From positions 2,133-66,132 of the forward strand of contig CAJOLH010000004.1 in assembly GCA_905235375.1 (NCBI GenBank): DNA of 64,000 bases, read 5' to 3'. The number at the start of each line of letters is the position of its first letter. Position 1 is the first letter of the stretch. The position numbers were made by a program, and so were the translations under genes. The stretch is from an uncultured Bacteroidales bacterium (lineage in GTDB: Bacteria; Bacteroidota; Bacteroidia; Bacteroidales; UBA3663). Below the pieces are notes generated by a model. It was not told the DNA's origin and did no database searches. It saw nothing but the letters and a program-made list of their open reading frames with translations. This document shows positions 3,405-59,826 of this stretch, piece after piece.

Positions 3405-5717
3405 ATGAAGAGATCTTTATTAACATTTCTGAGTTTCGTAGTCTCTGCGCTAGTTGTGGCACAGACTACAGATGAGAAGCCGATACTGACTATTGGCTGT
3501 ATTTCCGACTTCCACAACGAGAAGAGCCTGGTGCAAACCAACGACCCGTCGAAGGTGCAACTACGAGGTTCTGTGCCCATCATTTTTGAGAAGATGGCTC
3601 AGGAAGAGGATGTTGACGTAATCCTTGTGGGCGGTGACTGCACCAGTGAGGCCGAGGTGAGCGAGGAGGTATGGATGGCAGTGAAGACATTGCTGCACAA
3701 CACCATCCGAAGCGGATTCAAGGCAGACAAACCAACGCCAGTGCTTTACGTTGCAGGCAACCACGACTACGAGCTGTCGGCCAGGAAAGACGGTGTAAGA
3801 ATCTTCAATGCTGCCGACTACTACACCTATCCCATGAAACAGGATGTGGGCGAGTTGGCTGAGGGCGAATACACCACCGAGAGCCTTACATTCAGCGACG
3901 GTCCAAAAGACGTGATGAGCGCGTACCACTACAACGTTTACGGATTCGACTTTGTAGGTCTCAACTGCGGCAAGTACAGCTTTGACTGGTCGGACGACTA
4001 CCAGTATCCCATCGCATCGGTGGAATGGGTGGACAAGAAGCTCGACGAGATCTACGAGGATGACCCCGACAAGACGGTATTCTTCTTCCTGCATATTCCG
4101 TTCAACGACTCCAACAGCCTGCGCTTCTACGACAAAGGCCTGAAGGACAACGAGTCGTCGCAGAAGCTGAAGGCTGCCCTGAGCAAGCACCCGAACCTGA
4201 TCATGCTCTACGGTCACGACCACGGCGGCGACCGTGCCTTCACCCGCCGTACCTCGGCACAACGCGTGACGCTGTACGACAGCAACGGCCGCGTCATCCC
4301 ATCATTTGACAAGACACACGTGAAGGGCGCTACAGCAGATCCCGAGAACGATGTCTGCGACGAGGTTCAGGAGTTTGCACTCTACAATGCCTATAAGAAC
4401 AAGTACTTGGGCGACCTTCCTGACAACAGGCTCCAGCCTATCGACACGAAGAGCTTCAACGTGATCTTCACGCGTAACACGACGGGAGGCTCCTACACCG
4501 TTTCGATCGATGACTGCGCCCTGCACAACGGATCGTCGGCTGCCAGCTTCTCCGAGCAGGGAGCCACTGCCATCCTGATGTACAAGGTGGACGGCTATGA
4601 GGACGGAAAGCTCGTAGCGCACAAGACCAACGACCTCGTGGAGGGTGACGACTACCTCGTGGTGCGCTACCCCGACGCAAAGGGCTACTACGTGATGGGC
4701 TGCAAGTCGGTGGAAAATGACAAGTGCATGGCAAGCATTCATGTAGATAACAACGAGGACGGCAGCATCCTCTACATTCCCGAGAACAGCGCGCCTGAAT
4801 GTGTGTGGACGCTCGCTACCCCCAAGAGAGATGAATACTACTATATCAAGAGCTCGCTCACAGGCCGCTACCTGGACTGCAATGAATACAACCTCACCAC
4901 GCTCGAAGAGAAGGGACGCTGCACGGTGCAGAAGATTGCCGACGGAGTGCCTGCCTACCACATCGCCACTGAACATGCAGGCAGGGAGAGCAACTACCAA
5001 AGGAACCTGTTCTGCGGCTCCAACGGCTACTTCTCGACCAACATTGTAGCTAATGACATTTACCTCTACAAGGTGACGGATCTCACAGCTGACAACGAAA
5101 TTACTGCCGTACGCAGCGACAAGGTGGAGCTTGGCGAGAAGTATGTGATTGTGGGCAACTGTGACAAAGACAAGTCAAAGTGGTACATCCTCACCAACAA
5201 AGACTATATCAAGCCCGACGATGGCGGCCACCGCATGGTTCCTATTCCGGTTGACCCGACGGAGACCATCTCTCTTACTGACGACCCCGACAAGTCATGT
5301 CTGTGGGAGTTTGAGGATGCCACACCGGAGAGAGGCACACCGAGCTTCTTCTCCTCGTTCATGGGCAGTGCCCGCCACTACCTAAGCGGCATCGACCCTG
5401 GCACGCTGGACACGGGTACTCCCAACATCATTCAGGGCCTCATGATTTATGTCTATGCTGACAGAGTGGTGCTTCAGATGAAGAACTACCATAAGACAGG
5501 CTATATGGCTGACAGCGGTATTACCGTGAACGAGACGCTGGGCACCTATACTTCCTACCGCACGGTACAGAAAGTTCCTGTTGGCATCAAAGAAGTGGAG
5601 CTGAAGGACGCGTTCTATGAAGAGAAGGACGTGATCTACAACCTTACAGGTGTGCGCGTGAACAATCCTTCCCATGGCATCTATATCAGAAACGGGAAGA
5701 AGATGGTGGTGAAATAA
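3405..5717 (+). CDS. calcineurin-like metallophosphoesterase with C-terminal T9SS sorting domain
   Basis: Signal peptide MKRSLLTFLSFVVSALVVAQ. Metallophosphatase motif series DFHNE, GGDCT, GNHDYE, LHIP, GHDHGG. The C-terminus VIYNLTGVRVNNPSHGIYIRNGKKMVVK matches the type-A T9SS CTD pattern. Confidence 0.8.
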   Translation: MKRSLLTFLSFVVSALVVAQTTDEKPILTIGCISDFHNEKSLVQTNDPSKVQLRGSVPIIFEKMAQEEDVDVILVGGDCTSEAEVSEEVWMAVKTLLHNTIRSGFKADKPTPVLYVAGNHDYELSARKDGVRIFNAADYYTYPMKQDVGELAEGEYTTESLTFSDGPKDVMSAYHYNVYGFDFVGLNCGKYSFDWSDDYQYPIASVEWVDKKLDEIYEDDPDKTVFFFLHIPFNDSNSLRFYDKGLKDNESSQKLKAALSKHPNLIMLYGHDHGGDRAFTRRTSAQRVTLYDSNGRVIPSFDKTHVKGATADPENDVCDEVQEFALYNAYKNKYLGDLPDNRLQPIDTKSFNVIFTRNTTGGSYTVSIDDCALHNGSSAASFSEQGATAILMYKVDGYEDGKLVAHKTNDLVEGDDYLVVRYPDAKGYYVMGCKSVENDKCMASIHVDNNEDGSILYIPENSAPECVWTLATPKRDEYYYIKSSLTGRYLDCNEYNLTTLEEKGRCTVQKIADGVPAYHIATEHAGRESNYQRNLFCGSNGYFSTNIVANDIYLYKVTDLTADNEITAVRSDKVELGEKYVIVGNCDKDKSKWYILTNKDYIKPDDGGHRMVPIPVDPTETISLTDDPDKSCLWEFEDATPERGTPSFFSSFMGSARHYLSGIDPGTLDTGTPNIIQGLMIYVYADRVVLQMKNYHKTGYMADSGITVNETLGTYTSYRTVQKVPVGIKEVELKDAFYEEKDVIYNLTGVRVNNPSHGIYIRNGKKMVVK

Positions 5718-5902: not shown

Positions 5903-6050
5903 TTTCGAACACGGAATGCACTGAGGACACGGAAATTAGCGGGTCACAAAGGAGGCCTGAGTGCGTTTCTTCGTCGCACTCAGGACGGATGCCACTGAGG
6001 CTTGACGCGAGACGTGTTCCGTGAGTTTCGTGTGTTCCGTGGTAGAATTC
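5903..6050 (+). repeat. A element copy 3 (hairpin 5956..5984)
   Basis: This is the longest copy and includes the 3' GTGTTCCGTGAGTTTCGTGTGTTCCGTGG segment. Confidence 0.85.
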
Positions 6051-6473
6051 GACAATTCACGATAAAGGACAAGGGCACCAAGGAGTTATTATTCTCTACG
6101 GACTTTTGGGACTTTAAGGACTTTTGCTTGCGCACTCCCGGGATTAAAGGGCACACTGATTCCACTGATTCACACAGATTTTCGCTTGCGCGCTTCGAGG
6201 ATAGGCAGTGGCTCTTCAATCTATCACGAATTGGCGAATTAGCAAATTTCTCTACGGATGTCTTTTTCTCTACGGACTTCAGGGACTCTAAGGACTTTTG
6301 CTTGCGCGCGCCAATGATAGTCCATTATGTCAGACTCCATAGAGCCAAAGAAATCTGTGGAAATCTGTGAAATCTGTGTGACATGTGCCGATGTTCTGCC
6401 GCACGGAGTGCAGGGGTTAGGTCACACAGATTTCGCAGATGAACACAGATTTTTGCTTGCGCACTCCCAGCGT

Positions 6474-6597
6474 TTTTTATTATCGAACACGGAAGACACC
6501 GAGGACACTGAAATTAGCGGGTCACAAGGGAGGCCTGAGTGCGTTTCTGCGTCGCACTCAGGACTGAAGCCACTGATGCTTGACGCGAAATATATTC
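6474..6597 (+). repeat. A element copy 4 (hairpin 6534..6562)
   Basis: Same architecture as the other A copies. Confidence 0.85.
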
Positions 6598-11346: not shown

Positions 11347-11508
11347 CGAATTATTATTGAAACGTGGAAATTTTTTTATAATTATTTCATTATTCAACTC
11401 AATAATTAACAATAGATTGTAAAAAAGAGCGTAGGAAAAGCGTAGTAGAAGCAAATCGTAGCGTAGTAGATTCGTAGTATAATATTTGGACGTAAGGTAG
11501 AAAAACCC

Positions 11509-11516
11509 TATCTTTG
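11509..11516 (+). promoter_or_regulatory. -7 box TATCTTTG (shared leader cassette, SusC operon)
   Basis: Matches the TAnnTTTG consensus. TTTGG lies about 22 nt upstream. Confidence 0.6.
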
Positions 11517-11561
11517 CAGCGTCCATTACGAGAAATCGAAAACAAATGCGAATAATAACAA

Positions 11562-11690
11562 GGGGGTCGCTTCGCTCAAAATTCTCAAAAAATTAAATCA
11601 AAAAATTATAAGAAAAACGGGGCGAGATGGTCACGGCTTTTTAGATCACCTTCTTTTGATAATTTTTTATAATATTGAGCGAAGCGACAC
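11562..11690 (+). repeat. E element
   Basis: Same orientation and context as 2941..3066. The right arm is degenerate (GCGACAC). Confidence 0.85.
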
Positions 11691-12163
11691 TAAAACAAAA
11701 CATCGAAAAACCTGGGACAAAAAATTTTCGTTGATTTCGTGGTTTTCGTGGTTTTTCGGAATACTAAAATACGAGGGAGGTAATTCTGAAAATGTCCGAA
11801 AAGACGAAAAAGGACGAAAATTGGATCACGGATCATGGGGATTGAACGGATGTCCGAATAAGGTCACACAGATTCCTCAGATTCACACAGATTTTGCTTG
11901 CGCACACCCGTGATTGTCTGCGAGTCGCCAAGGAGGTATTTTTCTCTACGGACTTATTGGACTTTAAGGACTCTTTGCTTGCGCACTCCAGGGAGAGTAA
12001 TTCCGAAAATGTCCGAAAAGACGAAAAAGATCCGAAAAGACGAAAAAGGACGAAAATGGTTTGTAGTCATTTCCGTGTTTTTCGAAGTTGCCATGAAGCG
12101 AACATTCCAACAACCTACACATCTTATATATTATTAATCCACAAAAACCAAATCCAATTAAGT

Positions 12164-20608: not shown

Positions 20609-20786
20609 AAAGCATCGCCAGAAAAGCCTTCAGGCTCGATGCTGGACGTAAGAACTCTACGGATTTTCTCGGATTTACCGGATTTTCTGCTTGAACCGAC
20701 TTAACAGAAATCCGATGAATCTGGAAAATCCGTAGAGTTTTTAACGTTAATGACCGTATAATGGGCCGTTAATTACCATTAATACT
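20609..20786 (+). repeat. F element copy 2 (hairpin 20655..20737 + T-run)
   Basis: Follows the GH3 stop. CTCTACGGATTTTC...GAAAATCCGTAGAG then TTTTT. Confidence 0.85.
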
Positions 20787-20864
20787 GTTAAATCGATGTA
20801 TTTGTGGGTGATTGTTATGGTTTGATTAAACCTGAGAGCGAAAAGAGAGTCTATAAAGGCGGAT

Positions 20865-24987: not shown

Positions 24988-26265
24988 TTATTCGTACTCG
25001 AACACTCCGTTTTCAGTATGGAGCGTGACCTTGGCACCCTCGGAACGTGCTTCGACGTGACCGATAATCTGCGCATCGATGTTGAAGCTGTGGGCAATGT
25101 CGATGACCTCCTGGGCATATTCGGCAGGCAGATAGACTTCGAGCCGATGGCCCATGTTGAACACCTTATACATCTCGGACCAATCGGTAGCCGACTGCTC
25201 GTGAATGGTGCGGAACAGCGGCGGGATGGGGAAGAGATGATCCTTGATGACGTGCAGATTCTGGATGAAGTGGAGCACCTTGGTCTGTGCGCCTCCCGAG
25301 CAGTGTACCATGCCGTGGAGGATGGAGTTCAAAGAGTTTGAGGGGTTCGAGGGGTTCGAGAGGTTTGAGGGGTTCGAGGGGTTTGAGGGGTTTGAGGGGT
25401 TCGAGGGGTTTGAGAGGTTTGAGAGGTGAGAGCGGAACACATCGAGCATCTTCTTGACCACTGGGGCATAGGTGCGCGTGGGACTGAGCACGAGCTTTCC
25501 GGCATCGAGAGGACTGCCCTCCACCGGGTCAGTGAGACGAAGCTGTCCGCTATAGACGAGCGATTCGGGCACTGCATGATCGTAAGACTCTGGATATTTC
25601 CCGGCAAGATACTTGGCGAAGACATCATGACGAGCCGAGGTCAGACCGTTGGAACCCATGCCTCCGTTGTATTCCTTCTCGTAGGTGGCTTGTCCGAAAC
25701 TTGCGAGGCCGACGATGACGTCTCCAGCAGCGATGTTGGCATTGTCGATGACGTCAGAGCGCTTCATGCGACAGGTGACCGTGGAATCGACGATGATGGT
25801 GCGAGCCAAGTCACCGATGTCGGCAGTCTCTCCACCTGTTCCATAGACACCGATTCCCATCTCACGCAGTTCTGCCATCAGTTCGTCGTTGCCATTGATG
25901 ATGGCGCTGATGACTTCGCCCGGGATGAGCATCTTGTTGCGCCCAATGGTCGATGAGACAAGGATGTTATCAACAGCACCCACACAGATGAGGTCGTCGA
26001 TATTCATGATGAGAGAATCCTGTGCAATGCCCTTCCAGACGGAGAGGTCGCCTGTCTCCTTCCAATACATGTAGGCCAAAGACGTCTTTGTGCCTGCACC
26101 ATCGGCATGCATGATGTTACAATAGTCGGGATCGCCTCCGAGGATGTCGGGAATGATTTTGCAGAAAGCCTGTGGATAGAGGCCCTTGTCGATGTGCTTG
26201 ATGGCGTTGTGCACATCTTCCTTGCTGGCACTTACGCCGCGCATCATATATCTTTGGTCAGCCAT
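24988..26265 (-). CDS. purM: AIR synthase-related protein (Bacteroidota-type phosphoribosylformylglycinamidine cyclo-ligase) carrying a 36-aa (SNP)n insertion
   Basis: The ATG at 26265 gives MADQRYMMRGVSASKEDVH. PurM-like DGAGTK and GMVHCSGGAQTK regions. Codons 25325..25432 are a 9-bp tandem repeat translated as LSNLSNPSNPSNPSNPSNPSNLSNPSNPSNSLN. Confidence 0.75.
   Translation of the reverse strand: MADQRYMMRGVSASKEDVHNAIKHIDKGLYPQAFCKIIPDILGGDPDYCNIMHADGAGTKTSLAYMYWKETGDLSVWKGIAQDSLIMNIDDLICVGAVDNILVSSTIGRNKMLIPGEVISAIINGNDELMAELREMGIGVYGTGGETADIGDLARTIIVDSTVTCRMKRSDVIDNANIAAGDVIVGLASFGQATYEKEYNGGMGSNGLTSARHDVFAKYLAGKYPESYDHAVPESLVYSGQLRLTDPVEGSPLDAGKLVLSPTRTYAPVVKKMLDVFRSHLSNLSNPSNPSNPSNPSNPSNLSNPSNPSNSLNSILHGMVHCSGGAQTKVLHFIQNLHVIKDHLFPIPPLFRTIHEQSATDWSEMYKVFNMGHRLEVYLPAEYAQEVIDIAHSFNIDAQIIGHVEARSEGAKVTLHTENGVFEYE
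25325..25432 (-). repeat. 12 tandem 9-bp units (GRGGTTYGAG-type) inside purM
   Basis: Read directly from the sequence. The units are GGGTTCGAG, GGGTTTGAG and AGGTTTGAG. Confidence 0.95.
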
Positions 26266-39035: not shown

Positions 39036-39113
39036 CTTCTTAATCCCTTGGTCCCTTTCAATCCTTTCGAACCCCTTGAACCCTCTTAACCCCTCTTAAT
39101 CCCTTGAACCCCT
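39036..39113 (+). repeat. about 8.5 tandem 9-bp units of the same family (complementary orientation) between GH43 and the symporter
   Basis: CTTAATCCC TTGGTCCCT TTCAATCCT TTCGAACCC CTTGAACCC TCTTAACCC... Confidence 0.9.
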
Positions 39114-40612
39114 ATATTGTACTGGGTGTCATCGCCCTTTACTTCCTCATGGTGTTCGGCGTCAGCTGGTGGACTACCCGCCGTCGTGACCGCGACACCG
39201 AAACCTTCTATCGTGGCGATCGCAAGAGCCCCTGGTGGGTGGTGGCGATTGCCATGATTGGTACGTCCATCTCAGGCGTGACCTACGTCAGTGTGCCCGG
39301 CATGGTCGAAGCCAAGCAGATGAGCTACATCCAGATGGTGCTGGGCTTCGTCTGCGGATATTTCGCCGTGGCCTACATCCTGCTGCCTCTTTACTATCGC
39401 TTGGGGCTGTCGAGCATCTACGTCTATCTGGAGCAGCGCTACGGACGCTATGCCCACAAGACGGGTGCGGCGTTCTTCCTCCTGAGTAAGTATCTCGGCT
39501 GCGCAGTCAGGATGTATCTTACCGCCGTCGTGCTGCAGCTCGTGCTCTTCGACCAGCTGGGCGTACCCTTCGGACTTTCGGTGGCGTGCATCATGCTCAT
39601 CGTCTGGCTCTATTCGTTCCGGGGTGGTGTGAAGACGCTTGTCTGGACCGACCTGCTGCAGACACTCTGCCTGCTTTCGGCGATGATCGGGTTCGTGATC
39701 TGCATCAGTTCCGCCATGGGGTTGGACTTCACGGGGCTATGCAGCACCATTTCCGACAGTCCGATGTCGAGGGTATGGTTCTTCGACGATGCCAACGATA
39801 CCCGCTACTTCTGGAAGCAGTTCCTGGGCGGTATGTTCACCACCATCGCCATGACCGGTCTCGATCAGGACATGATGCAGAAAAACCTCTCGTGCAAGTC
39901 GCTGAAGGAGGCACAGAAGAACATGGTCTCTTACGGTTTCGGATTCCTGCCCGTCAACATCATCTTCCTTTCCTTAGGTATATTATTATATATGTACGCG
40001 CGCGAAGTGGGTGTTGATAAGAGTGGCGACGAACTCTTCCCCTATCTTGCCACAGGCATCAATCCAACCACGGGACAACCTTTCCTGCCCCTCATTGTGA
40101 GTGTGCTCTTCGTCCTTGGATTGGTGGCCGCTGCCTTCTCGTCGGCAGGTTCGGCAGTCACTGCACTGACCACCGCCATAATGGTCGATTTCCTGCGCAA
40201 GACACCCAATGAGGAAGGAGAGGGAAGTTTGAAGGGTTCGAGAGGTTTGAGGGGTTCGATAGAAGGCAAGCGTTTCCGTGTCCACATCATCAATTCCATC
40301 ATGATGGGGTTCATGATCTACCTGTTCCATCTGCTGTCATCGGGCTCGGTCATCAACGCTGTCTATGTGGTGGCATCCTATACCTACGGTCCGCTCATCG
40401 GACTCTTCTTCTTCGGCATGTTTACCAGACGCAAGGTGAATGACGGCTGGTGGATACCTGCCATCTGCATCGCTTCGCCTCTCCTCTGCTGGATTCTCGA
40501 CCAGCACTCCGAAGCATGGTTCAATGGCTATAAGATCGGCTACGAGATGCTGCTCATCAATGGTGCTCTGACGGCTATAGGACTGCTGGCAGCATCTTTG
40601 AGGAAAAATTGA
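39104..40612 (+). CDS. sodium:solute symporter family transporter with a short repeat-encoded loop insertion
   Basis: Polytopic membrane protein of about 500 aa with an SSS-like N-terminus. The TTG start at 39104 lies inside the 9-bp repeat tract, and an alternative ATG is at 39150. Residues SLKGSRGLRGSIE (40227..40262) are encoded by the GAGGGGTTY repeat. Confidence 0.75.
   Translation: MNPYIVLGVIALYFLMVFGVSWWTTRRRDRDTETFYRGDRKSPWWVVAIAMIGTSISGVTYVSVPGMVEAKQMSYIQMVLGFVCGYFAVAYILLPLYYRLGLSSIYVYLEQRYGRYAHKTGAAFFLLSKYLGCAVRMYLTAVVLQLVLFDQLGVPFGLSVACIMLIVWLYSFRGGVKTLVWTDLLQTLCLLSAMIGFVICISSAMGLDFTGLCSTISDSPMSRVWFFDDANDTRYFWKQFLGGMFTTIAMTGLDQDMMQKNLSCKSLKEAQKNMVSYGFGFLPVNIIFLSLGILLYMYAREVGVDKSGDELFPYLATGINPTTGQPFLPLIVSVLFVLGLVAAAFSSAGSAVTALTTAIMVDFLRKTPNEEGEGSLKGSRGLRGSIEGKRFRVHIINSIMMGFMIYLFHLLSSGSVINAVYVVASYTYGPLIGLFFFGMFTRRKVNDGWWIPAICIASPLLCWILDQHSEAWFNGYKIGYEMLLINGALTAIGLLAASLRKN
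40227..40262 (+). repeat. 4 tandem 9-bp units of the same family inside the symporter CDS
   Basis: GTTTGAAGG GTTCGAGAG GTTTGAGGG GTTCGATAG. Confidence 0.9.
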
Positions 40613-42752: not shown

Positions 42753-43256
42753 ATGAAAAAGATTCTTTTAGCAGCACTCTGCTGCATGACAATGGCAACA
42801 AGCATCGTGCTGGCACAGGACCAGTCACAGAGACGAGGAATGCGCGAGGGTAATCGCCAACAGATGTTCCAACTCGCCGACACCGCCATCACCAACCACC
42901 TCAATCTCACCACCGCTCAGCAGGTCGAGATTGCCAAGCTCAACGAGAGCTTCCGCGAACAGATGAGGGCAGAAGCCGAAAAGGGCAGGAATCTCGATAG
43001 GGAGGCACGCGCCGCTCATCGCACCGAGATGGAGGCAAAGCGCGCTGAAGGACGCAAGCAACTCCGCGCCATCCTAGGCACCGAGCTCTACATCGAATAC
43101 CTCGAAAAGGCCATCGATCAGCGTCCGATGATGATGGGCGGACAGCGCGGACCACGCCCCGACGGACAGAATATGCAGCGCCAGCGTGGTATGCGCCAGA
43201 ACGATTTCGGCGGCAATGCCTTCAGAGGCGGCGGCTTCGATGAAGGTGGATTCTAA
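42753..43256 (+). CDS. small secreted helical protein (Spy/CpxP- or DUF4890-like)
   Basis: The ATG at 42753 gives MKKILLAALCCMTMATSIVLAQ. Charged helical repeats (LTTAQQVEIAKLNESFREQMRAE...) and a Gly/Arg-rich tail. The family call is tentative. Confidence 0.45.
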   Translation: MKKILLAALCCMTMATSIVLAQDQSQRRGMREGNRQQMFQLADTAITNHLNLTTAQQVEIAKLNESFREQMRAEAEKGRNLDREARAAHRTEMEAKRAEGRKQLRAILGTELYIEYLEKAIDQRPMMMGGQRGPRPDGQNMQRQRGMRQNDFGGNAFRGGGFDEGGF

Positions 43257-43830
43257 AATAATCTTTTGTGGTCGCTTCGCTCAAAAGAGCATAGCGACCA
43301 CCTACTACATGAATATCGAAAATCCGGAAATATCTAAAAATATTTTCGGACTTTTTCGTTTTTTCGGACATTTTCGGAATTACACCCATCGTATTTTGGA
43401 TTCCGAAAAACCACGAAAACATCGAAACCAACGAAAACTTTATTACTTCGTCCTTTTCAAGTCTTTGGATGTTTATTTCGATCACTGATCACACGAATCA
43501 CACGGATTATCTGTCGGCACAAAGGAAACCAGTGGTCATTGCTTTGCCGACCACTGGGCGGATAAAACGGATCCTTGCCCGTCATCTTATCTCTATGGTG
43601 TTTTTCTTATTTCTCTACGGACTTCAAGGACTTAATGGACTATCCCTGGAGTGCACAAGCAAAAGTCTGTGCCCTTACATCTCTACAGATTTCACAGATT
43701 TATCAGATTAGCGGCTCGGTCTTAAATAAATCCGTTCAATCCGAGAAATCCGTAGAGGAATGGGACTATCATTGACGTGCGCAAGCAAAAGTCCTTATAG
43801 TCCCGAAAGTCCGTAGAGAATAAATGATCT
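43257..43830 (-). repeat. mosaic repeat block with D, C and B modules in reverse orientation
   Basis: 43342-43445 is the reverse complement of the D module (compare 3088-3185). 43775-43822 is the reverse complement of a C module. 43650-43712 is a B-like module in reverse. Confidence 0.8.
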
Positions 43831-43878
43831 CCTTATGGTGCGGCATCGAACTGACCGTTGCAGAAGAATGGTAATTTA

Positions 43879-43956
43879 AGAAAAAGTCCCATTTTTAGCT
43901 CAAAAAATTGAGAAAAAGTCCCATTTTTGGCTCAAAATATTGAGAAAAAGTCCCCA
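43879..43956 (+). repeat. 2.4 direct repeats of a 32-bp unit (GAGAAAAAGTCCCATTTTTRGCTCAAAAWATT) just upstream of the ATPase promoter
   Basis: Read directly from the sequence. Each unit contains TTGAG...CTCAA dyad symmetry. Confidence 0.85.
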
Positions 43957-44010
43957 AGCTCTTGTTTTTGTTGAAAAAAAGACCTATATTTGCAACCTAA
44001 ATCAGCGATT

Positions 44011-45387
44011 ATGTTATATAGGAAGTTTACAAGCAAAATCGAAGAGCACCTTCTTCATCAGCCCAACAAGATCTTGTTGGTCAATGGTGCCAGACAGATT
44101 GGCAAATCGTACCTGATTAGATATGTCGGACAGAAACTATTCAAGAACTACATAGAAATCAATCTGAAGGAAGACAGCGAAGGACTTAAAATCTTCAATT
44201 CTGTCGCCAGCACAGAAGACTTCTATTTGCAATTGGGAGCCATCGCAGGAAACCGATTAGGCAAAAAAGAGGACACACTGGTATTCCTAGACGAAATCCA
44301 AAGTTATCCACACCTGATGACCATGCTCAAGTTCCTCAATCAAGAGGGACGCTTTACTTATATAGCAAGCGGTTCGCAGTTAGGTGTAGCTTTGTCCCAA
44401 ACGGCATCCGTACCCATCGGCAGCATTTCCATCGAAGAGATGTATCCGCTCGACTTCGAGGAATTTCTTTTGGCTATGAACTGCAGCCAAGACACCATCA
44501 TCGGTATTCGCGAAAGGTTTGTTGCCAAGAAATCGGTGAATGACTCCATCCACAATTACATGATGCAGCAATTCAAGCTGTATTTGTTGGTTGGAGGTAT
44601 GCCTGACGCTATCAACACGTTCAAGGAGACCCGAAATATTGCACAAGTCAGGAACATACAACGCGATATACATAGGCTTTACAGAATCGACGCATCACAA
44701 TATGACGAAGAGAGAAAGCTAGTTATTCGAAAGCTCTTCGACCTCATTCCCTCCAATATGGAGAACAAGAAAAAGAGGGTCATAGTGAAACGCATCGAAG
44801 AAACAAACAGACACAAGCAATTCAGTGATTATGCTGAAGAGTTCGAATATCTGACCAACTCGGGAATTGCCCTTTCTGTACAAGCCATCAGCAACCCAAG
44901 ATTTCCTCTGCTCGAATCCGAGAGCAAGAATCTCATCAAGCTTTATATGAACGACGTTGGCCTACTGACCAATCTTCTTTACGGCAACAACATCAATGCA
45001 GTGCTCAGAGATGAAAAAAGCATCAACCTTGGTTCTGTCTATGAATCAGTTGTGGCGCAGGAATTGCACGCTCACGGCTTCCACTTGCACTATTATGACA
45101 ACAAGCAGAAGGGCGAAGTGGATTTCATGGTTGACGATTACAAGCAGCTCACCGTGCTTCCCATCGAGGTTAAATCCGGTAAGGATTACAAAGTGCACAG
45201 TGCCCTCGACAAACTCCTTGAAAACCCAGACTACAACATCAAGCAGGCCGTCGTACTCAGCAACAACCAGTCCGTTTATTCAGAGCATGGCATCGTCTAT
45301 CTCCCCATCTACTATTGTATGTTCTTCGACCAAAATGCCTCTGCCAGTGATGAGTGCATCATCCCGGAGATACGATTGGAGTTGTAA
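44011..45387 (+). CDS. AAA-family ATPase (AAA_14 + DUF4143 architecture)
   Basis: The ATG at 44011 gives MLYRKFTSKIEEHL. Walker A GARQIGKS, Walker B LVFLDEIQ, and a C-terminal DUF4143-like EVDFMV...PIEVKSG motif. Lies in an AT-rich segment. Confidence 0.8.
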   Translation: MLYRKFTSKIEEHLLHQPNKILLVNGARQIGKSYLIRYVGQKLFKNYIEINLKEDSEGLKIFNSVASTEDFYLQLGAIAGNRLGKKEDTLVFLDEIQSYPHLMTMLKFLNQEGRFTYIASGSQLGVALSQTASVPIGSISIEEMYPLDFEEFLLAMNCSQDTIIGIRERFVAKKSVNDSIHNYMMQQFKLYLLVGGMPDAINTFKETRNIAQVRNIQRDIHRLYRIDASQYDEERKLVIRKLFDLIPSNMENKKKRVIVKRIEETNRHKQFSDYAEEFEYLTNSGIALSVQAISNPRFPLLESESKNLIKLYMNDVGLLTNLLYGNNINAVLRDEKSINLGSVYESVVAQELHAHGFHLHYYDNKQKGEVDFMVDDYKQLTVLPIEVKSGKDYKVHSALDKLLENPDYNIKQAVVLSNNQSVYSEHGIVYLPIYYCMFFDQNASASDECIIPEIRLEL

Positions 45388-45551
45388 GATTTCTCACTAT
45401 TCAGAATAGTCAAACAATCGCCGATACCATTGGTCACGCCCAACTTTCCCGCCTCATGCTCCTCTGGCGCGGTGTGGAGCTTGCAGTTGCGGAAGAATGG
45501 TAATTTTGAGAGAAAAAGAATAGTTAAAATTAGTTTTCATATTATCTAACA

Positions 45552-46217
45552 ATGAACCCTAAATATTGGACAAGCATAAAGAATGCCATCAAGAGCTTCT
45601 GGGCTACTAGAAGTTCTGTCGGTGTTCTGCCAGGCAAGCAGCTTGATGACTTTCTGAAACTAATCAAACAAGTAGCTATGGATGCTAGTGTACCTGAGTC
45701 TTGTATATACACCAAAAACAACCGCATCCCAGGTTATTACCGTGCTAGCAAAGACTGGGATCTAATCATAGTCTCTCCACAAAAGAATTTAATTGCCGCA
45801 ATCGAACTGAAATCTCAGGTAGGTTCTTACGGCAACAACTTAAATAATCGCACAGAAGAATCATTAGGTTCTTCGGAAGATTTCTGGACAGCTTTTAGAG
45901 AAAAAGCTTTCCCTTGCAAACAATCGCCCTGGTTGGGATATATGATGTTGGTGGGTAAAGACGAAGACTCCACGCACAAAGTTAAAGTTTCAGAACCTCA
46001 TTTCTCTGTACGTCCTGAATTCAAGGAAGCCACCTATCTTGACAGATATTGTATCTTGTGCCAAAGACTGATTCTCGAGCACAAGTATAACGCAGTGGGG
46101 TTAATCACAACGTCTGGTCCAAATCATTGCGAAAGCATCGCCAACAACATCTCCATCGAATCTTTTCTTGATAGTTTCCGAGGCCATTTATTAGGTTGTG
46201 AAGATGAGTTCAAGTAA
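45552..46217 (+). CDS. type II restriction endonuclease, PD-(D/E)xK fold, XhoI/PaeR7I-like
   Basis: 221 aa. DWDLIIVSPQKNLIAAIELKSQVGSYGNNLNNRTEESLG fits D...ExK and my recollection of the XhoI family signature. Overlaps the downstream methyltransferase gene by 14 nt. Confidence 0.6.
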   Translation: MNPKYWTSIKNAIKSFWATRSSVGVLPGKQLDDFLKLIKQVAMDASVPESCIYTKNNRIPGYYRASKDWDLIIVSPQKNLIAAIELKSQVGSYGNNLNNRTEESLGSSEDFWTAFREKAFPCKQSPWLGYMMLVGKDEDSTHKVKVSEPHFSVRPEFKEATYLDRYCILCQRLILEHKYNAVGLITTSGPNHCESIANNISIESFLDSFRGHLLGCEDEFK

Positions 46218-47805
46218 TCTTATATATGGCAAGCGCACAAATGGAGGACAGCAAGGCGACGTTTTTACACATCCATACGTCGTAAAGTACATGCTGGACA
46301 TGGTCGGTTACAATCCTGACAAGGATTTATCGACCCTATCCATTATGGAGCCATCCTGTGGCGAAGGCGAATTTCTCGTCGAAATCGTGCATCGTCTCCA
46401 GTTGTCTGCCGAGCGTTTTAGCTTTGACTTGAACAAAGCATACCACACATGTATCCATGCCTCAGATATCGATGCCTCGAAGATAAAGAAATGTCTGGAT
46501 CGTCTCAATACCCTCTTTCCATCCATCATTCATCCCGAACAGATTATCAAAACCGAAGATTATCTGCTGAATGACCAGCCCACGGTGGATATTGTAGTAG
46601 GCAATCCTCCCTATATTCGTTACGAACAGATTCCCGAAAACAAGTTGCCTATCTACAAAAAGCTGTTCCCCACATTCTATTATAGGGCAGACATGTACGT
46701 GCTATTCTATGAGAAGTCACTTCGCCAGCTAAAACCACATGGCCGACACTGCTTCATTTGTTCCAATCGCTGGATGCGCAATCAATATGGCAAAGTGCTT
46801 CGCAAGATGGTCGCACAATCCTTCAGAATAGAGAGAATCATCAATATGGAAGGAGCAGATGCCTTCCAAGAAGATGTCTTGGCTTATCCTGCAGTAACGT
46901 TGTTCTCCAACAACAAGCAAAGCGACAGCTATCTTTACGCTGAGATTTCGTCGGTGAGCCAATTACGTAATGAAGAAACAATTGAACGTCCTTGCCCCAA
47001 TGACGAGGATTGGAGCCGTATGTTTGCCAAGGATTCTTTACACGACTTATTCCCACTCATCGAAGAACAGGGGTTCAAGATCGGCATTGGTGTAGCTACA
47101 GGAGCTGATAAAATTTTCATCTCCCATGATTTAAGAGGTAAAATCGAAGACTCTCTACTTCTGCCTGCGATACATGGGCAAGACCTCCGAGCCAATAAAA
47201 TGAACTGGAATGGGAGGATGCTATTCAATCCCTACGACAAAAATGGGGAGCTCATCAACCTTGACTCCTACCCTCTTTGCAAATCATATCTGGAGAGTCA
47301 TCGCAAAGCATTATCAAATCGGGCCAAGGCAAAGCACAACCCATCCAAGTGGTATGGAACCATTGATAGAATCTATCCTGCCCTCCAACATGAAGCCAAG
47401 ATACTTCTGCCTGATATTTCGGGCAATTCCTTCATTTTTATTGATGAGGGTAACTATTATCCGCTACACAATATATATTATATCATTGGTGGCACGACAA
47501 AACAACTCTATCTGTTGGCAGCTATTCTGATGTCTGATTTTGCACGCGGTCAGCTTGCAAGCCTTACCAATCACATGAATGGAGGCTATCCTCGCTGGCA
47601 GAGTCAATACCTCAAGAAGTTGAGGATTCCTGTTATTAATTCTATTCCCAAGGATCTTGCTGACAAGCTTCTACATTCATACCGAACACGAAATAATGAC
47701 GAAATCAATTATTATGTTTCTCTAATAATCGAGAATGGCAAGCAAGACTCAAAAGGAAGAATACACAGAAAAAAACCGATGCAGTTGCAATTAGTTTTTG
47801 ATTGA
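46204..47805 (+). CDS. N6-adenine DNA methyltransferase (gamma class)
   Basis: The ATG at 46204 gives MSSSNLIYGK. The SAM motif I EPSCGEGEF precedes the catalytic motif IV VVGNPPYI. At about 533 aa, its size is similar to M.PaeR7I/M.XhoI. Confidence 0.85.
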   Translation: MSSSNLIYGKRTNGGQQGDVFTHPYVVKYMLDMVGYNPDKDLSTLSIMEPSCGEGEFLVEIVHRLQLSAERFSFDLNKAYHTCIHASDIDASKIKKCLDRLNTLFPSIIHPEQIIKTEDYLLNDQPTVDIVVGNPPYIRYEQIPENKLPIYKKLFPTFYYRADMYVLFYEKSLRQLKPHGRHCFICSNRWMRNQYGKVLRKMVAQSFRIERIINMEGADAFQEDVLAYPAVTLFSNNKQSDSYLYAEISSVSQLRNEETIERPCPNDEDWSRMFAKDSLHDLFPLIEEQGFKIGIGVATGADKIFISHDLRGKIEDSLLLPAIHGQDLRANKMNWNGRMLFNPYDKNGELINLDSYPLCKSYLESHRKALSNRAKAKHNPSKWYGTIDRIYPALQHEAKILLPDISGNSFIFIDEGNYYPLHNIYYIIGGTTKQLYLLAAILMSDFARGQLASLTNHMNGGYPRWQSQYLKKLRIPVINSIPKDLADKLLHSYRTRNNDEINYYVSLIIENGKQDSKGRIHRKKPMQLQLVFD

Positions 47806-48024
47806 ATAGTAAAATTTCTCGCAGACGCAGTCAAGACCCATCAGGGTTAAGACCAAAAGCCCGTTTCCGCCCAGCATGCAGACAAGGAAAAGCAGGGTTA
47901 ACTCATACAAGTAAAGTCCTGCCAGGGTTAAGACGAGAAGTAGTAAACTCTTTGTAGGGGTAAAGTCTAATTCCAGTCAAGTTATTTCAGGGAACTACAG
48001 AAGAATTCTTCTTATTTTCGAAGC

Positions 48025-48490
48025 ATGACCATTTTGCGCCAAGATTGGGTATTCTTCAATCGCGGCATACCCTTTCTTGGCCAACTTTGGTTATGCTCCA
48101 AACGGATAAAGCACTCTAACGGCCGACAGAGTGCTTTTTCCAACCGAGGAATACCCTTTTTTAGCCGAAATTGGTCATGCTCCTGTCGCGGCATACCCTT
48201 TCCTGGCCAACTTTGGTTATGCTCCAAACGGAAAAAGCACTCTGACGGCCGACAGAGTGCTTTATCCAAACGAGGAATACCCTTTCTTGGCCGAAATTGG
48301 TTATGCTTCTGTCGCTGCATACCCTTTCTTTGCCAACTTTGGTTATGCCCCAAACGGAAAAAGCACTCTGACGGCCGACAGAGTGCTTTTTCCAACCGAG
48401 GCATACCCTTTCTTGGCCGAAATTGGTCATGCTCCAATCACGGCATACACTTTTTTGGCCAAGATTGGTTATGCTCCAAACGACGACTGT
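48025..48490 (+). repeat. tandem array, 126-bp period (3 x 42-bp subunits), about 3.7 units
   Basis: Unit starts are at 48061, 48187, 48313 and 48439. Each full unit has GCACTCTG-ACGGCCGA-CAGAGTGC flanked by an A-run and a T-run. Confidence 0.95.
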
Positions 48491-48494
48491 ATTT

Positions 48495-48575
48495 CGAACA
48501 CGAATAGCACGAATCATACGAATAAAAAGAAAGTTTTGATAAAACTTATTCGAAAGATTCGATAGATTCGTGTTC
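48495..48575. repeat. word hairpin (ACGAAT words) between the tandem array and the DPP-IV stop
   Basis: CGAACACGAATAGCACGAATCATACGAAT faces ATTCGAAAGATTCGATAGATTCGTGTTC. Confidence 0.75.
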
Positions 48576-48649
48576 CTTCCCCAACAATACTAAGCTTCAA
48601 GCATCAGCATTATACGTTTTTGGGAGCAGCGAAAAGTCTCTCAGATAAG

Positions 48650-50908
48650 TCAGAGGTTCTTCTTGAAGTAAGAGCAGACTTTCTTGTAGATGTGGACGTT
48701 GCTGTTGCCGCCTTGGATGAAGTGATTGCGGTTGGTATAGACCATCATGTCGAAATCGAGGTCATTCTGGACGAAAGCTTCTGCCACTTCGTAGGTGTTC
48801 TGTGGATGCACATTGTCGTCGGCTGTGCCTGTGACGATGAGCAGCTGGCCCTTGAGATCCTGGGCGCGACTCAGGACGGAGCTCTTGCGATAGCCTTCGG
48901 CATTCTGCTGCGGTGTGCGCATGAAACGCTCGGTATAGATGGTGTCGTAGAACTTGAAGTCGGTGACGGGAGCCACTGCCACACCTGCCTTGAAGACATC
49001 GTTGCCGCCACACATCGTCATCAGCGTATTGTAACCGCCGAAGCTCCAGCCCCAAATGCCGATACGACTGGCATCGACGTAGGGCAGCGAAGCAGCATAA
49101 CGACCAGCGGAGAGCTGATCTTCAGCTTCACGCACACCTAATTCGCAATAGACCTGACGCTCCCACTGCGCACCGCGACATGCCGTGCCTCGGCCATCGA
49201 CGGTCAAAGCTACAAAACCCTCCTGTGCTAAATACATCGGGAAGCCGAACTCCCAACGGTCTAGCACCTCCTGCGAGCCAGGGCCACCGTATTGCTCGAG
49301 CACACACGGAGCCTTGCCGCTGACATTGTTCGGACGGATGACATAGCCATTGAGCTTGTCGCCACGTTCGGTGGTCATCTGGAAGAACTCACGCTTGGGC
49401 TGACCAGCCACTTCCTTGCGAAGAGCGGCATTGTCCTCCAAGGTCTTAATGACCTTCAGCGTCTGCACACTTTCGAGCGTGACGCGGGTGGGCGTTTCGG
49501 CATCACTGTAGTAGTGCTGCATATAGATGAAGCCACGGCTGAAGGCTGCACTGTGCGTACCTCGGCAACCTGCCCCATCACGTCCGCCATTGAAGAGAGG
49601 CACCATCACACCCTTGGCGTCAATCTTATAGATGCCACGGGTCAGTTCGGAGGGGACTGACGAGCCCTTGCCGACGTAAGCCACCTGCACGTAGGCGCAA
49701 CGCGAAACGGGGTCGTAGCCATAGACGTTGGTCAGGTCGAAATTGCCCTTGGTGAGCTGACGCTGCTGCTGACCCAACATATTATAATAATATAGGTGTC
49801 GCCAACCCGACCGTTCGCTGGCAAAGGTGAAGCCATTCTCGTCGAACTGGATGGCATCGAGGTCAGCCTCGGCGATATACTGGTCGTTGGTGTCCTCAAG
49901 GATGAGCTTGGATACGCCACTGCGGGGATTGACGAAATAGAGTGACAGCTTGTTCTGCAGGCGGTTCATGGTCACAACTGCCAGCTTTTCCTCGTCCTTG
50001 GTGAACTGGATGCGCGGGATGTAGCCATCAGCATCAACGGGCACTTTGAGTTGATTGAGTTTCTTCGTATAGACATCGTATGACCAGGCAGAGATCTTGG
50101 AATTTACTTCGCCTGCCACGGGATATTTATAGACATACTGACCCGGGTAGAACTCATACTCGGGGTGTTCGGGGAACTGGCCCTTGTAGGTGGGCAGGTA
50201 ATATTCCTTCACGTCGCTCTCGTCCCACTTGAGGAAGCAGAACGTCTTCGAGTCGGGACTCCAGGCAATCGCCCTGTCCATCGAAAACTCCTCCTCATAG
50301 ACCCAGTCGGGCACACCGTTGATGATCTTGTTGCGCGCACCGTCGTCGGTCACTTGCCGCTCGGCGAGGTCGATGCCTGCCGACATCACGCGCACATAGA
50401 AGAGATTGTTGTCGCGCATGAAGACGAGCTGACGACCGTCGGGAGCCATCGTCACCGCCTGCACCTTGCCTTCGGTGAGACGCTTGAAGGTCTGACGACG
50501 CACGCCACTGGCTTCGATGACATAGTAGAAATAGTCGGCCTTGTAGCTACGGCGATAGATCGACTCACGATTGCTCCACACGAGGAGACGTTCCTCGTCC
50601 TGTGAGAGTTCGTAGCCCGAAATCCTGAGTTTGCTGACGTCGAGCCCCTCTTCGGGCTTCACCTTGTTGAGATTGAGCAGCGTATCGACGGCGTGACCGT
50701 TGCTGTACTGATATTTTACGATGGCACGACCATCGGCTGTGATGGCGGTGTAATGCTTGCCGTCAGCTGTGCTACGGAAAGCAGGCACACTGTTGCCGCG
50801 ATAATGTCCACCACGGACAGCTTCCACCGTGATAGGTTCAGCTGCATTGGCTGCAACCGAAAAGGTCATGACAATCAAGCCAACGAGCAAAGAAAGATGC
50901 TTTTTCAT
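48650..50908 (-). CDS. dipeptidyl-peptidase IV (S9B prolyl oligopeptidase family)
   Basis: The ATG at 50908 gives MKKHLSLLVGLIVMTFSVAANA. N-terminal beta-propeller, nucleophile elbow GWSFGGY, and GTADDNVH near the C-terminus. Confidence 0.88.
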   Translation of the reverse strand: MKKHLSLLVGLIVMTFSVAANAAEPITVEAVRGGHYRGNSVPAFRSTADGKHYTAITADGRAIVKYQYSNGHAVDTLLNLNKVKPEEGLDVSKLRISGYELSQDEERLLVWSNRESIYRRSYKADYFYYVIEASGVRRQTFKRLTEGKVQAVTMAPDGRQLVFMRDNNLFYVRVMSAGIDLAERQVTDDGARNKIINGVPDWVYEEEFSMDRAIAWSPDSKTFCFLKWDESDVKEYYLPTYKGQFPEHPEYEFYPGQYVYKYPVAGEVNSKISAWSYDVYTKKLNQLKVPVDADGYIPRIQFTKDEEKLAVVTMNRLQNKLSLYFVNPRSGVSKLILEDTNDQYIAEADLDAIQFDENGFTFASERSGWRHLYYYNMLGQQQRQLTKGNFDLTNVYGYDPVSRCAYVQVAYVGKGSSVPSELTRGIYKIDAKGVMVPLFNGGRDGAGCRGTHSAAFSRGFIYMQHYYSDAETPTRVTLESVQTLKVIKTLEDNAALRKEVAGQPKREFFQMTTERGDKLNGYVIRPNNVSGKAPCVLEQYGGPGSQEVLDRWEFGFPMYLAQEGFVALTVDGRGTACRGAQWERQVYCELGVREAEDQLSAGRYAASLPYVDASRIGIWGWSFGGYNTLMTMCGGNDVFKAGVAVAPVTDFKFYDTIYTERFMRTPQQNAEGYRKSSVLSRAQDLKGQLLIVTGTADDNVHPQNTYEVAEAFVQNDLDFDMMVYTNRNHFIQGGNSNVHIYKKVCSYFKKNL

Positions 50909-59654: not shown

Positions 59655-59826
59655 GGGGATTTTAAGGGATTCTTAGGGATATTTAGGGATTTTAAGGGAC
59701 GTTACTTTTGGCTATAGAAAATAGACCCAAGAAACATTTGTCCTTTAAAATCCCTAAGAATCCCTTAATATCCTTAAATATCCCTAAGAATCCCTTAATA
59801 TCCCTAAAATCCCTTAGAATCCCTTA
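59655..59826. repeat. word hairpin (TAAGGGATT-type units of about 11 bp) between the convergent LicD and GH9-like genes
   Basis: The left arm 59655-59699 faces the right arm 59740-59826. The right arm runs into the GH9-like stop codon. Confidence 0.9.

Follow-up and report, generated by a model that had tools for sequence, protein, structure and literature searches.

Within the 64 kb stretch analysed here (the window, from contig CAJOLH010000004.1 of an uncultured Bacteroidales bacterium), the interval 48019-48480 does not code for protein and belongs, as a 'solo' copy, to a family of arrays of fixed length, each made of about ten palindromic units of 42 bp. Complete arrays of this family lie directly downstream of a gene whose product is a small DNA-binding protein of MarA-like (HTH_18) type. 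The window copy sits between two convergent genes, encoding an Eco57I/TaqI-like methyltransferase (46198-47805, forward strand) and a DPP-IV peptidase (48650-50908, reverse strand), and consists of 11 head-to-tail units that align when the sequence is laid out in rows of 42 bp. Tandem Repeats Finder (TRF) describes 48060-48482 as 3.4 copies of a 126-bp period with 90% matches and a score of 706, and also recovers the 42-bp sub-period, with 58% matches. A first-pass annotation of the window, made from the sequence alone, had placed unit starts at 48061, 48187, 48313 and 48439 and divided each 126-bp repeat into three 42-bp parts (box1, a hairpin and box2); the TRF result and the 42-bp rows bear out both the starts and the anatomy. 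Three types of arm make up the units, Y (ATACCCTTTCTT), Z (ATRACCAATCTT) and H (AAGCACTCTGWC), and the units of the window array are as follows.

48019..48060, forward strand: unit 1, of the terminal Zz type and more symmetrical than the others (CATGACC..GCGC..GGGTAT), with the centre GCGC in place of GGCC.
48061..48102, forward strand: unit 2 (box1), an asymmetric Yz palindrome, GCATACCCTTTCTT-GGCC-AACTTTGGTTATGC.
48103..48144, forward strand: unit 3 (hairpin, H), GGATAAAGCACTCTA-ACGGCCGA-CAGAGTGCTTTTTCC, which holds a TAA in reading frame 2 and pairs at 13 of 15 stem positions.
48145..48270, forward strand: units 4-6 (box2, box1, H), the first full 126-bp block, corresponding to units 6-7-8 of the orthologous array at locus L013.
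48271..48396, forward strand: units 7-9 (box2, box1, H), the second 126-bp block, with all 15 bp of the stem paired in its H unit at 48355.
48397..48480, forward strand: units 10-11 (box2 and a box1-like last unit), a truncated third block that ends the array.

All three kinds of unit in the window array are palindromes in a single register, with a central GGCC at positions 19-22 flanked by two arms of about 20 bp; the palindromes span 32-38 bp. The sequence before 48061, previously taken for a partial unit, turns out to be complete: it spans 42 bp (48019-48060) and belongs to the more symmetrical type. Its complementarity to box2 is 78%; it matches unit 1 of the L013 array at 36 of 42 positions and is the orthologue of the first unit in the related arrays. 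Since this unit is complete, the array measures 11 x 42 bp. The hairpin also differs from its first description as a short stem with A5 and T5 tails: the two runs pair with each other, giving a stem of 13-15 bp out of a possible 15 rather than an 8-bp stem with tails. Within the 64 kb window the hairpin core and the box core are confined to the array (dinucleotide shuffles gave means of 0.00 and 0.07 matches), and the sequence downstream of 48480 is unrelated to the family.

The history of the window array can be read from other copies of the same locus. L001 is the window's own contig, identical to it over 22 kb, and the L002 contig, assembled from a different sample, has the same array and 99.98% identity, so a comparison of copy number between assemblies, which had been proposed as a check, showed the array unchanged. 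Three further loci (L013, L021 and L061), whose flanking genes are about 86% identical to those of the window, have an 11-unit array in the same place, 6-9 bp from the DPP-IV stop codon, with the units in a different order. Window units 4-6, 7-9 and 10-11 each find their best match in units 6-7-8 of the orthologous array, which shows the 126-bp period to be three units triplicated in this lineage. Unit 2 (box1) best matches unit 7 of L013, at 40 of 42 positions. The triplication arose inside an ancestral array of 11 units, and the total stayed at 11. Overall, similarity among the units within the window array exceeds their similarity to the orthologous units, a sign of concerted evolution. Relative to L013, L021 and L061, the window carries two insertions, 43256-48017 and 48481-48653, one at each edge of the array.

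Related arrays are found in other genomes. An exact-pattern scan of one genome per species returned 29 loci in seven metagenome-assembled genomes (MAGs), all of them rumen or omasum Bacteroidales/Prevotellaceae, and a scan of metagenome contigs with the hairpin core returned 38 further loci. The loci occupy about 20 distinct chromosomal positions, many of which are common to several species, and all are intergenic. Spacing is highly regular: in arrays with boxes, 529 of 545 junctions between units are exactly 42 bp, and a further 12 are 84 bp, corresponding to one undetected unit. The central tetranucleotide is GGCC in 509 of 606 units. Array length is similarly constrained, with 10 units in 46 of the 66 internal arrays, nine in 10, 11 in seven, eight in two and seven in one; a few edge units with degenerate centres escape detection, and the true count may be one higher in some of these arrays. 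No solitary unit was found in the family scans. Arms occur in the combinations Yz, Zz, Zy, Yy and Hh, and arrays are box-rich, alternating between H and Z, or composed of H units only. Units with Z as their left arm account for 53% of first units and 63% of last units, compared with 25% of inner units. Oriented arrays contain 171 Yz units and 10 Zy units, and H units occur in both orientations (33 vs 25). One contig, L030, holds two arrays 4 kb apart (154-529 and 4572-5033) that differ in make-up, one being H-only with some 41-bp spacings and the other box-rich. Contigs often end within arrays, as in L003, L036, L037 and L070. Neither phage and plasmid collections searched by blastn nor IMG/VR searched by pattern contained a match to the array, and the literature, searched also with the literal repeat sequences, yielded no description of the repeat. 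The family is apparently undescribed so far.

The pattern of variation among units indicates what is being maintained. Among 139 distinct Yz units there is hardly any variation at the arm positions, and the entropy of the linker positions is near 2 bits, almost that of random sequence. It follows that the units are old and that selection or continual correction preserves their arms. In 118-128 of these 139 units, the same three positions are mismatched between the Y and z arms. In the H stem, a C-G pair has become T-G in 9-12 units and C-A in 8-13 units, and the matching double change is never seen. G-T and A-C mismatches are similarly frequent in H units (68 vs 73) and are balanced in box units once one polymorphic position is set aside. 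The constraint thus acts on the sequence of the arms and not on base pairing. The polarity of an array and the direction of its neighbouring genes are not consistently related, divergent Bacteroidetes-type promoters flank the arrays of five locus groups, and no promoter is conserved at a fixed place near the arrays. Taken together, the conserved arms, the exact four-turn spacing and the fixed length point to recognition of double-stranded DNA rather than to an RNA structure.

A candidate partner for the arrays is encoded beside some of them. In one class of locus the array begins 13 bp after the stop codon of an HTH_18 gene (HTH162), the 162-aa product of which contains little beyond its HTH_18 (AraC/MarA-type) domain. 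This block of gene plus array is present at at least three sites, and two MAGs have two copies per genome. Arrays located downstream of tRNA-Leu retain a remnant of the 3' end of the HTH_18 gene as a 'leader', matching at about 36 of 47 bp by manual count (the same alignment reports an identity of 0.59-0.64 over 75 columns), from which it follows that gene-linked arrays gave rise to at least some of the solo ones. Diverged homologues of the 162-aa protein, with 29-62% identity, were fetched and the DNA downstream of their genes was inspected, with the following results.

L081, 62% identity to the 162-aa protein: about nine units downstream, with a GCGCGC centre.
L074/L075, 58% identity: 4-5 units, followed by an insertion sequence (IS).
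L076/L077, 54% identity: 10-11 units, with arms GCATACAGAT / ATGTATGC.
L084, 48% identity: about 10 units that begin 524 bp away, beyond an insertion.
L080, 45% identity: 10 units with arms GCATGTCC / GGACATGC, then a GTGCAATCGGTTGA trailer as in GGCC-type loci.
L082/L083, 40% identity: about eight weak units, their 42-bp register assigned by eye and nothing scored by TRF.
L047, 29% identity: an H-only array 7 bp from the stop codon.

In six of eight homologue groups the HTH_18 gene ends 6-95 bp before a 42-bp array scored by TRF, and in one further group a 42-bp array follows only after an insertion of about 0.5 kb. The 42-bp period, the palindromic character of the units and a number of units that is mostly 8-11 are all kept, and the sequence of the unit differs from one homologue group to the next. 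A period and unit number that are kept while unit sequence changes with the protein form the pattern expected of a protein and its cognate sites.

We consider it quite possible, if short of probable, that the window array is a solo, phased binding array for an HTH_18 protein supplied in trans; the binding itself is inferred from the sequence comparisons above. Such an array would act on double-stranded DNA. Because 42 bp corresponds to four helical turns, it would present about twenty phased half-sites on one face of the helix, and an HTH_18-family protein provided in trans would coat these sites to build a nucleoprotein block some 0.45 kb long where genes or islands meet, which might then serve in insulation, as a roadblock, in silencing or in segregation. 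MarA-type proteins bind as monomers to an asymmetric site of about 20 bp, and two inverted sites of this kind would fill one 42-bp unit. The first-pass annotation had left three options for the repeat (a decaying or unusual protein gene, a multi-copy peptide or RNA cassette, or a structural DNA array), and of these the structural DNA array lies nearest to the evidence, whereas the decaying protein gene is rejected. Several observations weigh against a protein-bound array. The link between protein and array consists of adjacency and co-variation only; gene and array could diverge together merely as neighbours, and in-register gene conversion alone could hold the length of the units and purge indels. 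One homologue of the 162-aa protein, at L078/L079 (49% identity), is accompanied by 127-bp 'word' repeats and has no 42-bp array. The genes for HTH162 and for WH288, its frequent upstream partner, are absent from the 64 kb window. In addition, all relatives are short-read MAGs or metagenome contigs, and many loci are orthologous, so the counts overstate the number of independent observations. A more elaborate version is conceivable but improbable. Here, a two-part Bacteroidales system would use a small MarA-like protein that polymerises on an array of about 10 x 42 bp to form a nucleoprotein body of defined size; its cis part would have multiplied to about 20 solo arrays in a clade of rumen Prevotellaceae, where they would serve as insulators or boundary elements that mark the sites of defence cassettes.

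Among known systems, the array would work most like the plasmid partition and iteron arrays, a comparison in which its binding role is predicted. The sopC site of the F plasmid has 12 repeats of 43 bp, each holding a short inverted repeat to which SopB binds, and parC of plasmid R1 has 10 repeats. The family resembles sopC, parC and iteron arrays in its tandem and strictly phased repeats of about four turns, in the inverted repeat within each unit and in the number of units, about 10-12. It also shares with them the position of the array beside the gene for a small DNA-binding protein and a repeat sequence that changes with the protein; phased sites beside a protein gene, co-varying with it in sequence, are what would be expected of cognate sites, and the array family shows both. 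The differences concern the partner and the setting. The partner of the family is HTH_18/MarA-like rather than ParB, RHH or Rep, no gene for a partition NTPase or for replication lies near the family arrays, and the family is chromosomal, mostly as solo arrays at about 20 positions, with no plasmid or phage match.

Other explanations of the array place its function in a protein or in RNA. Four reading frames are open across the window array, as the first-pass annotation had stated, gene callers put a 160-aa 'hypothetical protein' on it (window 48025-48507, forward strand, corresponding to L001 12402-12884), and a search with the frame-2 peptide matches seven database 'proteins' (P0001-P0007). 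A gene for a protein or peptide cassette with a 14-residue repeat (AYPFLA..GYAP / STLTADRVLFP), possibly decaying, is nevertheless exceedingly improbable. The 15 variable columns among the first three 126-bp repeats (starts at 48061, 48187 and 48313) do include seven that are silent in + frame 2, taking one substitution at a time, and one that is silent in frame 1, and these counts reproduce those made originally; the TAA at 48107-48109 and the GTG at 48131 likewise stand. What does not stand is the frame-specific constraint drawn from them. Seven of 15 differences in one codon phase is a chance-level result (binomial P = 0.20), and the reverse frame that shares this wobble position also has seven of 15 silent. 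Stops were counted in six frames, first in 33 related arrays and then in 50 with defined polarity. Frame 2 is open over its whole length in one of the 50, and the best of the six frames in 14. In frame 2 the left arms ATGACC/ATAACC of Z-left units read TGA/TAA, and many H units read GATAAAG. No clear codon periodicity emerges from the family entropy by codon phase (0.47, 0.46 and 0.24 bits in box units; 0.59, 0.52 and 0.52 in H units), and no unit is 3 or 6 bp longer or shorter than 42 bp, although a coding repeat would tolerate such changes. The seven database 'proteins' are translations of arrays on short contigs, and one of them starts inside a tRNA-Leu gene. On the six-frame stops, the codon-phase entropy and the binomial test we ruled out a coding gene; stops in frame 2 of homologous arrays, together with a silent excess that disappears, are also the grounds that the first-pass annotation had itself named for abandoning the coding hypothesis. 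The open reading frames (ORFs) annotated across arrays are very probably spurious. An RNA-level element fares better but is still unlikely in our judgement. On this account the array is transcribed within neighbouring mRNAs as about 10 consecutive hairpins and acts in transcription termination and/or in protection of 3' ends from exonucleases, as is supposed for repetitive extragenic palindromes and their bacterial interspersed mosaic elements (REP/BIME) and for BOX/SPRITE. Both strands do fold far better than shuffled sequence (z = -14.8 and -11.7), the 3' end of a gene lies at most 82 bp from the array in at least 11 of about 20 locus groups, often at 0-50 bp, nothing intervenes in the 13 bp between the HTH_18 stop codon and the array, and T5 follows two of the three H units of the window. 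However, strong folding of both strands is a trivial consequence of palindromic units, and the T-run in the window is the outer portion of the long palindrome. Four or more T's follow 14 of the 145 distinct hairpin units of the family and the run is lacking in the other 131, so the 'perfect bidirectional terminators' originally described are no property of the family. We rejected the intrinsic terminator as a family trait on this count and on the pairing of T-run with A-run in the 15-bp stem. A terminator consensus scan flagged one site in the window array, which is not above shuffles. Neither strand has an excess of G-U-compatible mismatches and there are no compensatory changes; the commonest unit, Yz, retains three fixed mismatches, yet fully paired Zz and Yy units exist. 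The polarity of arrays is unrelated to the direction of the abutting genes, the five locus groups noted above lie between divergent promoters, and independent hairpins would need no exact 42-nt spacing. In Rfam 15, tRNA-Thr alone reaches its gathering score in the window and nothing does so for the array; with the threshold relaxed to E 10 over 47700-48700, the best match is to a microRNA model at E = 0.1.

Two further explanations treat the array as a mobile or recombining sequence. A selfish or neutral interspersed repeat akin to MITEs (miniature inverted-repeat transposable elements), comparable to BOX and BrickBuilt, would have spread as a unit of about 420 bp and be homogenised by gene conversion between copies, with no host function, and the HTH_18 gene would merely be the place where the founder copy arose. 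This would fit the dispersal over about 20 intergenic positions of all types, the HTH_18 3'-end leader that travels with some solo arrays, the enrichment of palindromic Z-type units at both ends in the manner of terminal repeats, and the concerted evolution within the window array. Bacteroidales also provide a precedent in BrickBuilt, a tandem 23-nt repeat that has leader and tail sequences and is present in 19 intergenic copies (PMC4596501). We still hold such a repeat to be improbable. Words shared between array flanks give no signal of target-site duplication beyond the null (mean length 4.65 vs 4.72), and no transposase was noticed among the annotated flanking genes, apart from unrelated rve insertion sequences in L074 and L084, the whole genomes not having been scanned for one. 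The insertions are old, being common to species with 86% identical genes, and arms, spacing and unit number have been kept despite near-random linkers. Moreover, the period of 42 and the number of about 10 units persist beside proteins diverged to 40-60% identity, even with a wholly changed unit sequence. A recombination landing pad, in which arrays favour the arrival of adjacent foreign cassettes by offering about 420 bp of portable homology or fragile palindromes, is quite doubtful as an explanation in its own right, though it could apply alongside any other reading. Defence genes have been inserted next to arrays in three independent, lineage-specific cases (in the window, at L020, and at L042 and L073), and across 13 kb of synteny between the window and L013 the only large structural differences are at the two edges of the array. 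Set against this, there are three cases only and no statistical control, intergenic DNA between convergent genes or beside tRNA genes is a hot spot for insertion in any event, palindromes of 32-38 bp are short for hairpin-provoked breakage, and the 42-bp phasing and fixed unit number are left unexplained.

The family was also compared with the described classes of bacterial repeat. REP/BIME sequences (PMC2817692, PMC3733652) are imperfect intergenic palindromes of 20-40 bp, against 32-38 bp for the family, and they too form mosaic clusters of several unit types, often at the 3' ends of genes; BIMEs are known protein-binding sites (PMC2817692, PMC3733652). Unlike REPs, which alternate, the units of the family run head-to-tail (171 Yz vs 10 Zy). 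GTAG/CGTC tags occur in just 35 of 606 family units, and the family lacks singletons and dimers, has tens of loci rather than hundreds and has a fixed unit number. We therefore rejected REP/BIME membership on tag, orientation, copy number and singletons. No RAYT (Y1) transposase was noticed among the annotated flanking genes, and whole genomes were not scanned for it. The pneumococcal BOX element (PMC3049150) is likewise a tandem composite of module types whose stop-free repeats give rise to spurious or nascent ORFs and which would fold strongly if transcribed. In BOX, however, the number of boxB modules varies by locus and strain (PMC3049150), whereas 63 of 66 family arrays have 9-11 units, and BOX has distinct A and C end modules, whereas the ends of family arrays are of several types and merely enriched for one. 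The nearest Bacteroidales precedent is BrickBuilt of Porphyromonas gingivalis (PMC4596501), which has about 19-20 intergenic copies per genome of spacerless tandem short repeats, some with 'leaders', and a limited host range. Its unit is 23 nt long and non-palindromic, its total length ranges from 84 to 991 nt, and it has IS5-like terminal inverted repeats and some target duplications; the family, by contrast, has a 42-bp palindrome, a fixed length of about 420 bp, no target duplication and a link to an HTH_18 gene. A MITE was rejected because terminal inverted repeats with target-site duplications were not found, Z-type units being merely enriched at the ends. A CRISPR array was rejected because units abut directly and only a linker of about 10 nt varies. 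An integron attC site or Vibrio cholerae repeat (VCR) was rejected because RYYYAAC and GTTRRRY are both missing from the window array and no cassettes lie between its units.

If the partnership of protein and array is real, the family would represent a new kind of bacterial cis element, namely fixed-size, helically phased multi-site arrays served by an AraC/MarA-type protein, and the model would be directly testable through binding, spacing mutants, the transcription of neighbouring genes and the acquisition of islands. The hosts are abundant but uncultured rumen bacteria. The arrays also have practical consequences for genome data, as they break short-read assemblies and yield spurious ORF calls (here the 160-aa ORF, and in protein databases at least seven entries). 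Annotation of Prevotellaceae MAGs would be cleaner once the family is recognised.

The HTH_18 gene is usually preceded by a gene for a 288-aa orphan protein (WH288). The family of this protein, 288-295 aa in length, comprises 42 clusters known from metagenomes only, with members at L018 1959-2825, L020 3835-4701, L011 2291-3157 and L081 2651-3538. An AlphaFold2 (AF2) model of the 288-aa protein (pLDDT 83) has two predicted winged-helix domains in tandem and a small, beta-rich C-terminal domain, which in the family carries invariant N-D-Y, H, H and R residues. Sequence searches of Pfam, NCBIfam, PHROGs, PADLOC and the PDB gave nothing significant for the protein, and its model has no Foldseek match with E < 0.001; a weak HTH_36 match is present in six of 26 family members. 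A tandem series of five blocks, each about 90 bp long, lies upstream of the 288-aa gene in L020 (3190-3660), and likewise in L018 (about 1350-1940) and L011 (about 1720-2270). In every block a Bacteroidetes-type promoter (TTTG ... TAACTTTG) comes after four or five words of 10 bp (GGACAAATGC, GTGACAAAAG, CTGACAAAAA).

The first-pass annotation was right to set the window array at the edge of a restriction-modification island. The interval 43256-48017 is a lineage-specific insertion with a GC content of 39-46%, compared with 52-59% in its flanks, and it is absent from L013, L021 and L061, which otherwise align with the window on either side of it at 86% identity. The insertion contains no integrase and no transposase. 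The insertion on the other edge of the array, 48481-48653 (173 bp), likewise has no counterpart in the orthologous loci. The features around the array, assigned for the three island genes by domain matches, are as follows.

43256..48017, forward strand: low-GC defence island of 4.76 kb, ending exactly at the left edge of the array.
43990-45387, in the island: PDC-S01-type AAA_14/DUF4143 ATPase.
45552-46217, in the island: XhoI-like type II restriction endonuclease.
46198-47805, forward strand: Eco57I/TaqI-like N6-adenine type II methyltransferase.
48496..48575, no strand: ACGAAT 'word' inverted repeat with 30-nt arms that are 80% complementary, within 48481-48653, between the array and the DPP-IV stop codon.

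Genes of defence type are also seen near other arrays. A retron-type reverse transcriptase (RT-Protease_XI/RT-TIR_XII-like in PADLOC, E = 1e-98), encoded at L042 9217-10314 and L073 1362-2624, lies by arrays and is absent from L055 and L043. An AbiLi-like AAA_21 ATPase, encoded at L020 6468-7805, lies downstream of the array and is absent in L006 and L019, and an AAA_14/DUF4143 ATPase is encoded at L082 293-1630, near a pair of HTH_18 gene and array.

The ACGAAT inverted repeat falls outside the array family and bounds the array. It belongs to a different kind of repeat in which the intergenic DNA of this genome is rich, consisting of 3-5 copies of a word of 6-10 nt at a spacing of 9-11 bp. 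Complementary words often occur a short distance off and form 'word hairpins', of which the ACGAAT hairpin is one that is specific to this lineage. Besides 48496-48575, word repeats are present at 43317-43438, 43609-43820, 43873-43954 and 47828-47992, and they account for many TRF rows with a period of 9-11, for example at 6014-6512, 11428-12056, 20660-20791 and 59656-59826. The 127-bp repeat at L078 4550-4894, present there in 2.8 copies and also seen in L079, is built of word hairpins that surround the motif TTTTGCTTGCGCAC. In the window island this motif (GCAAGCAAAAGTC) is found at 43637-43667 and again 126 bp further on, at 43763-43793. The 9-mer GTTTGAGGG occurs in the window in ten tandem copies, with shorter runs of this 9-mer or its complement (CCCTCAAAC-like) 14-15 kb away; together these lie at 25336-25427, 39038-39113 and 40227-40256.

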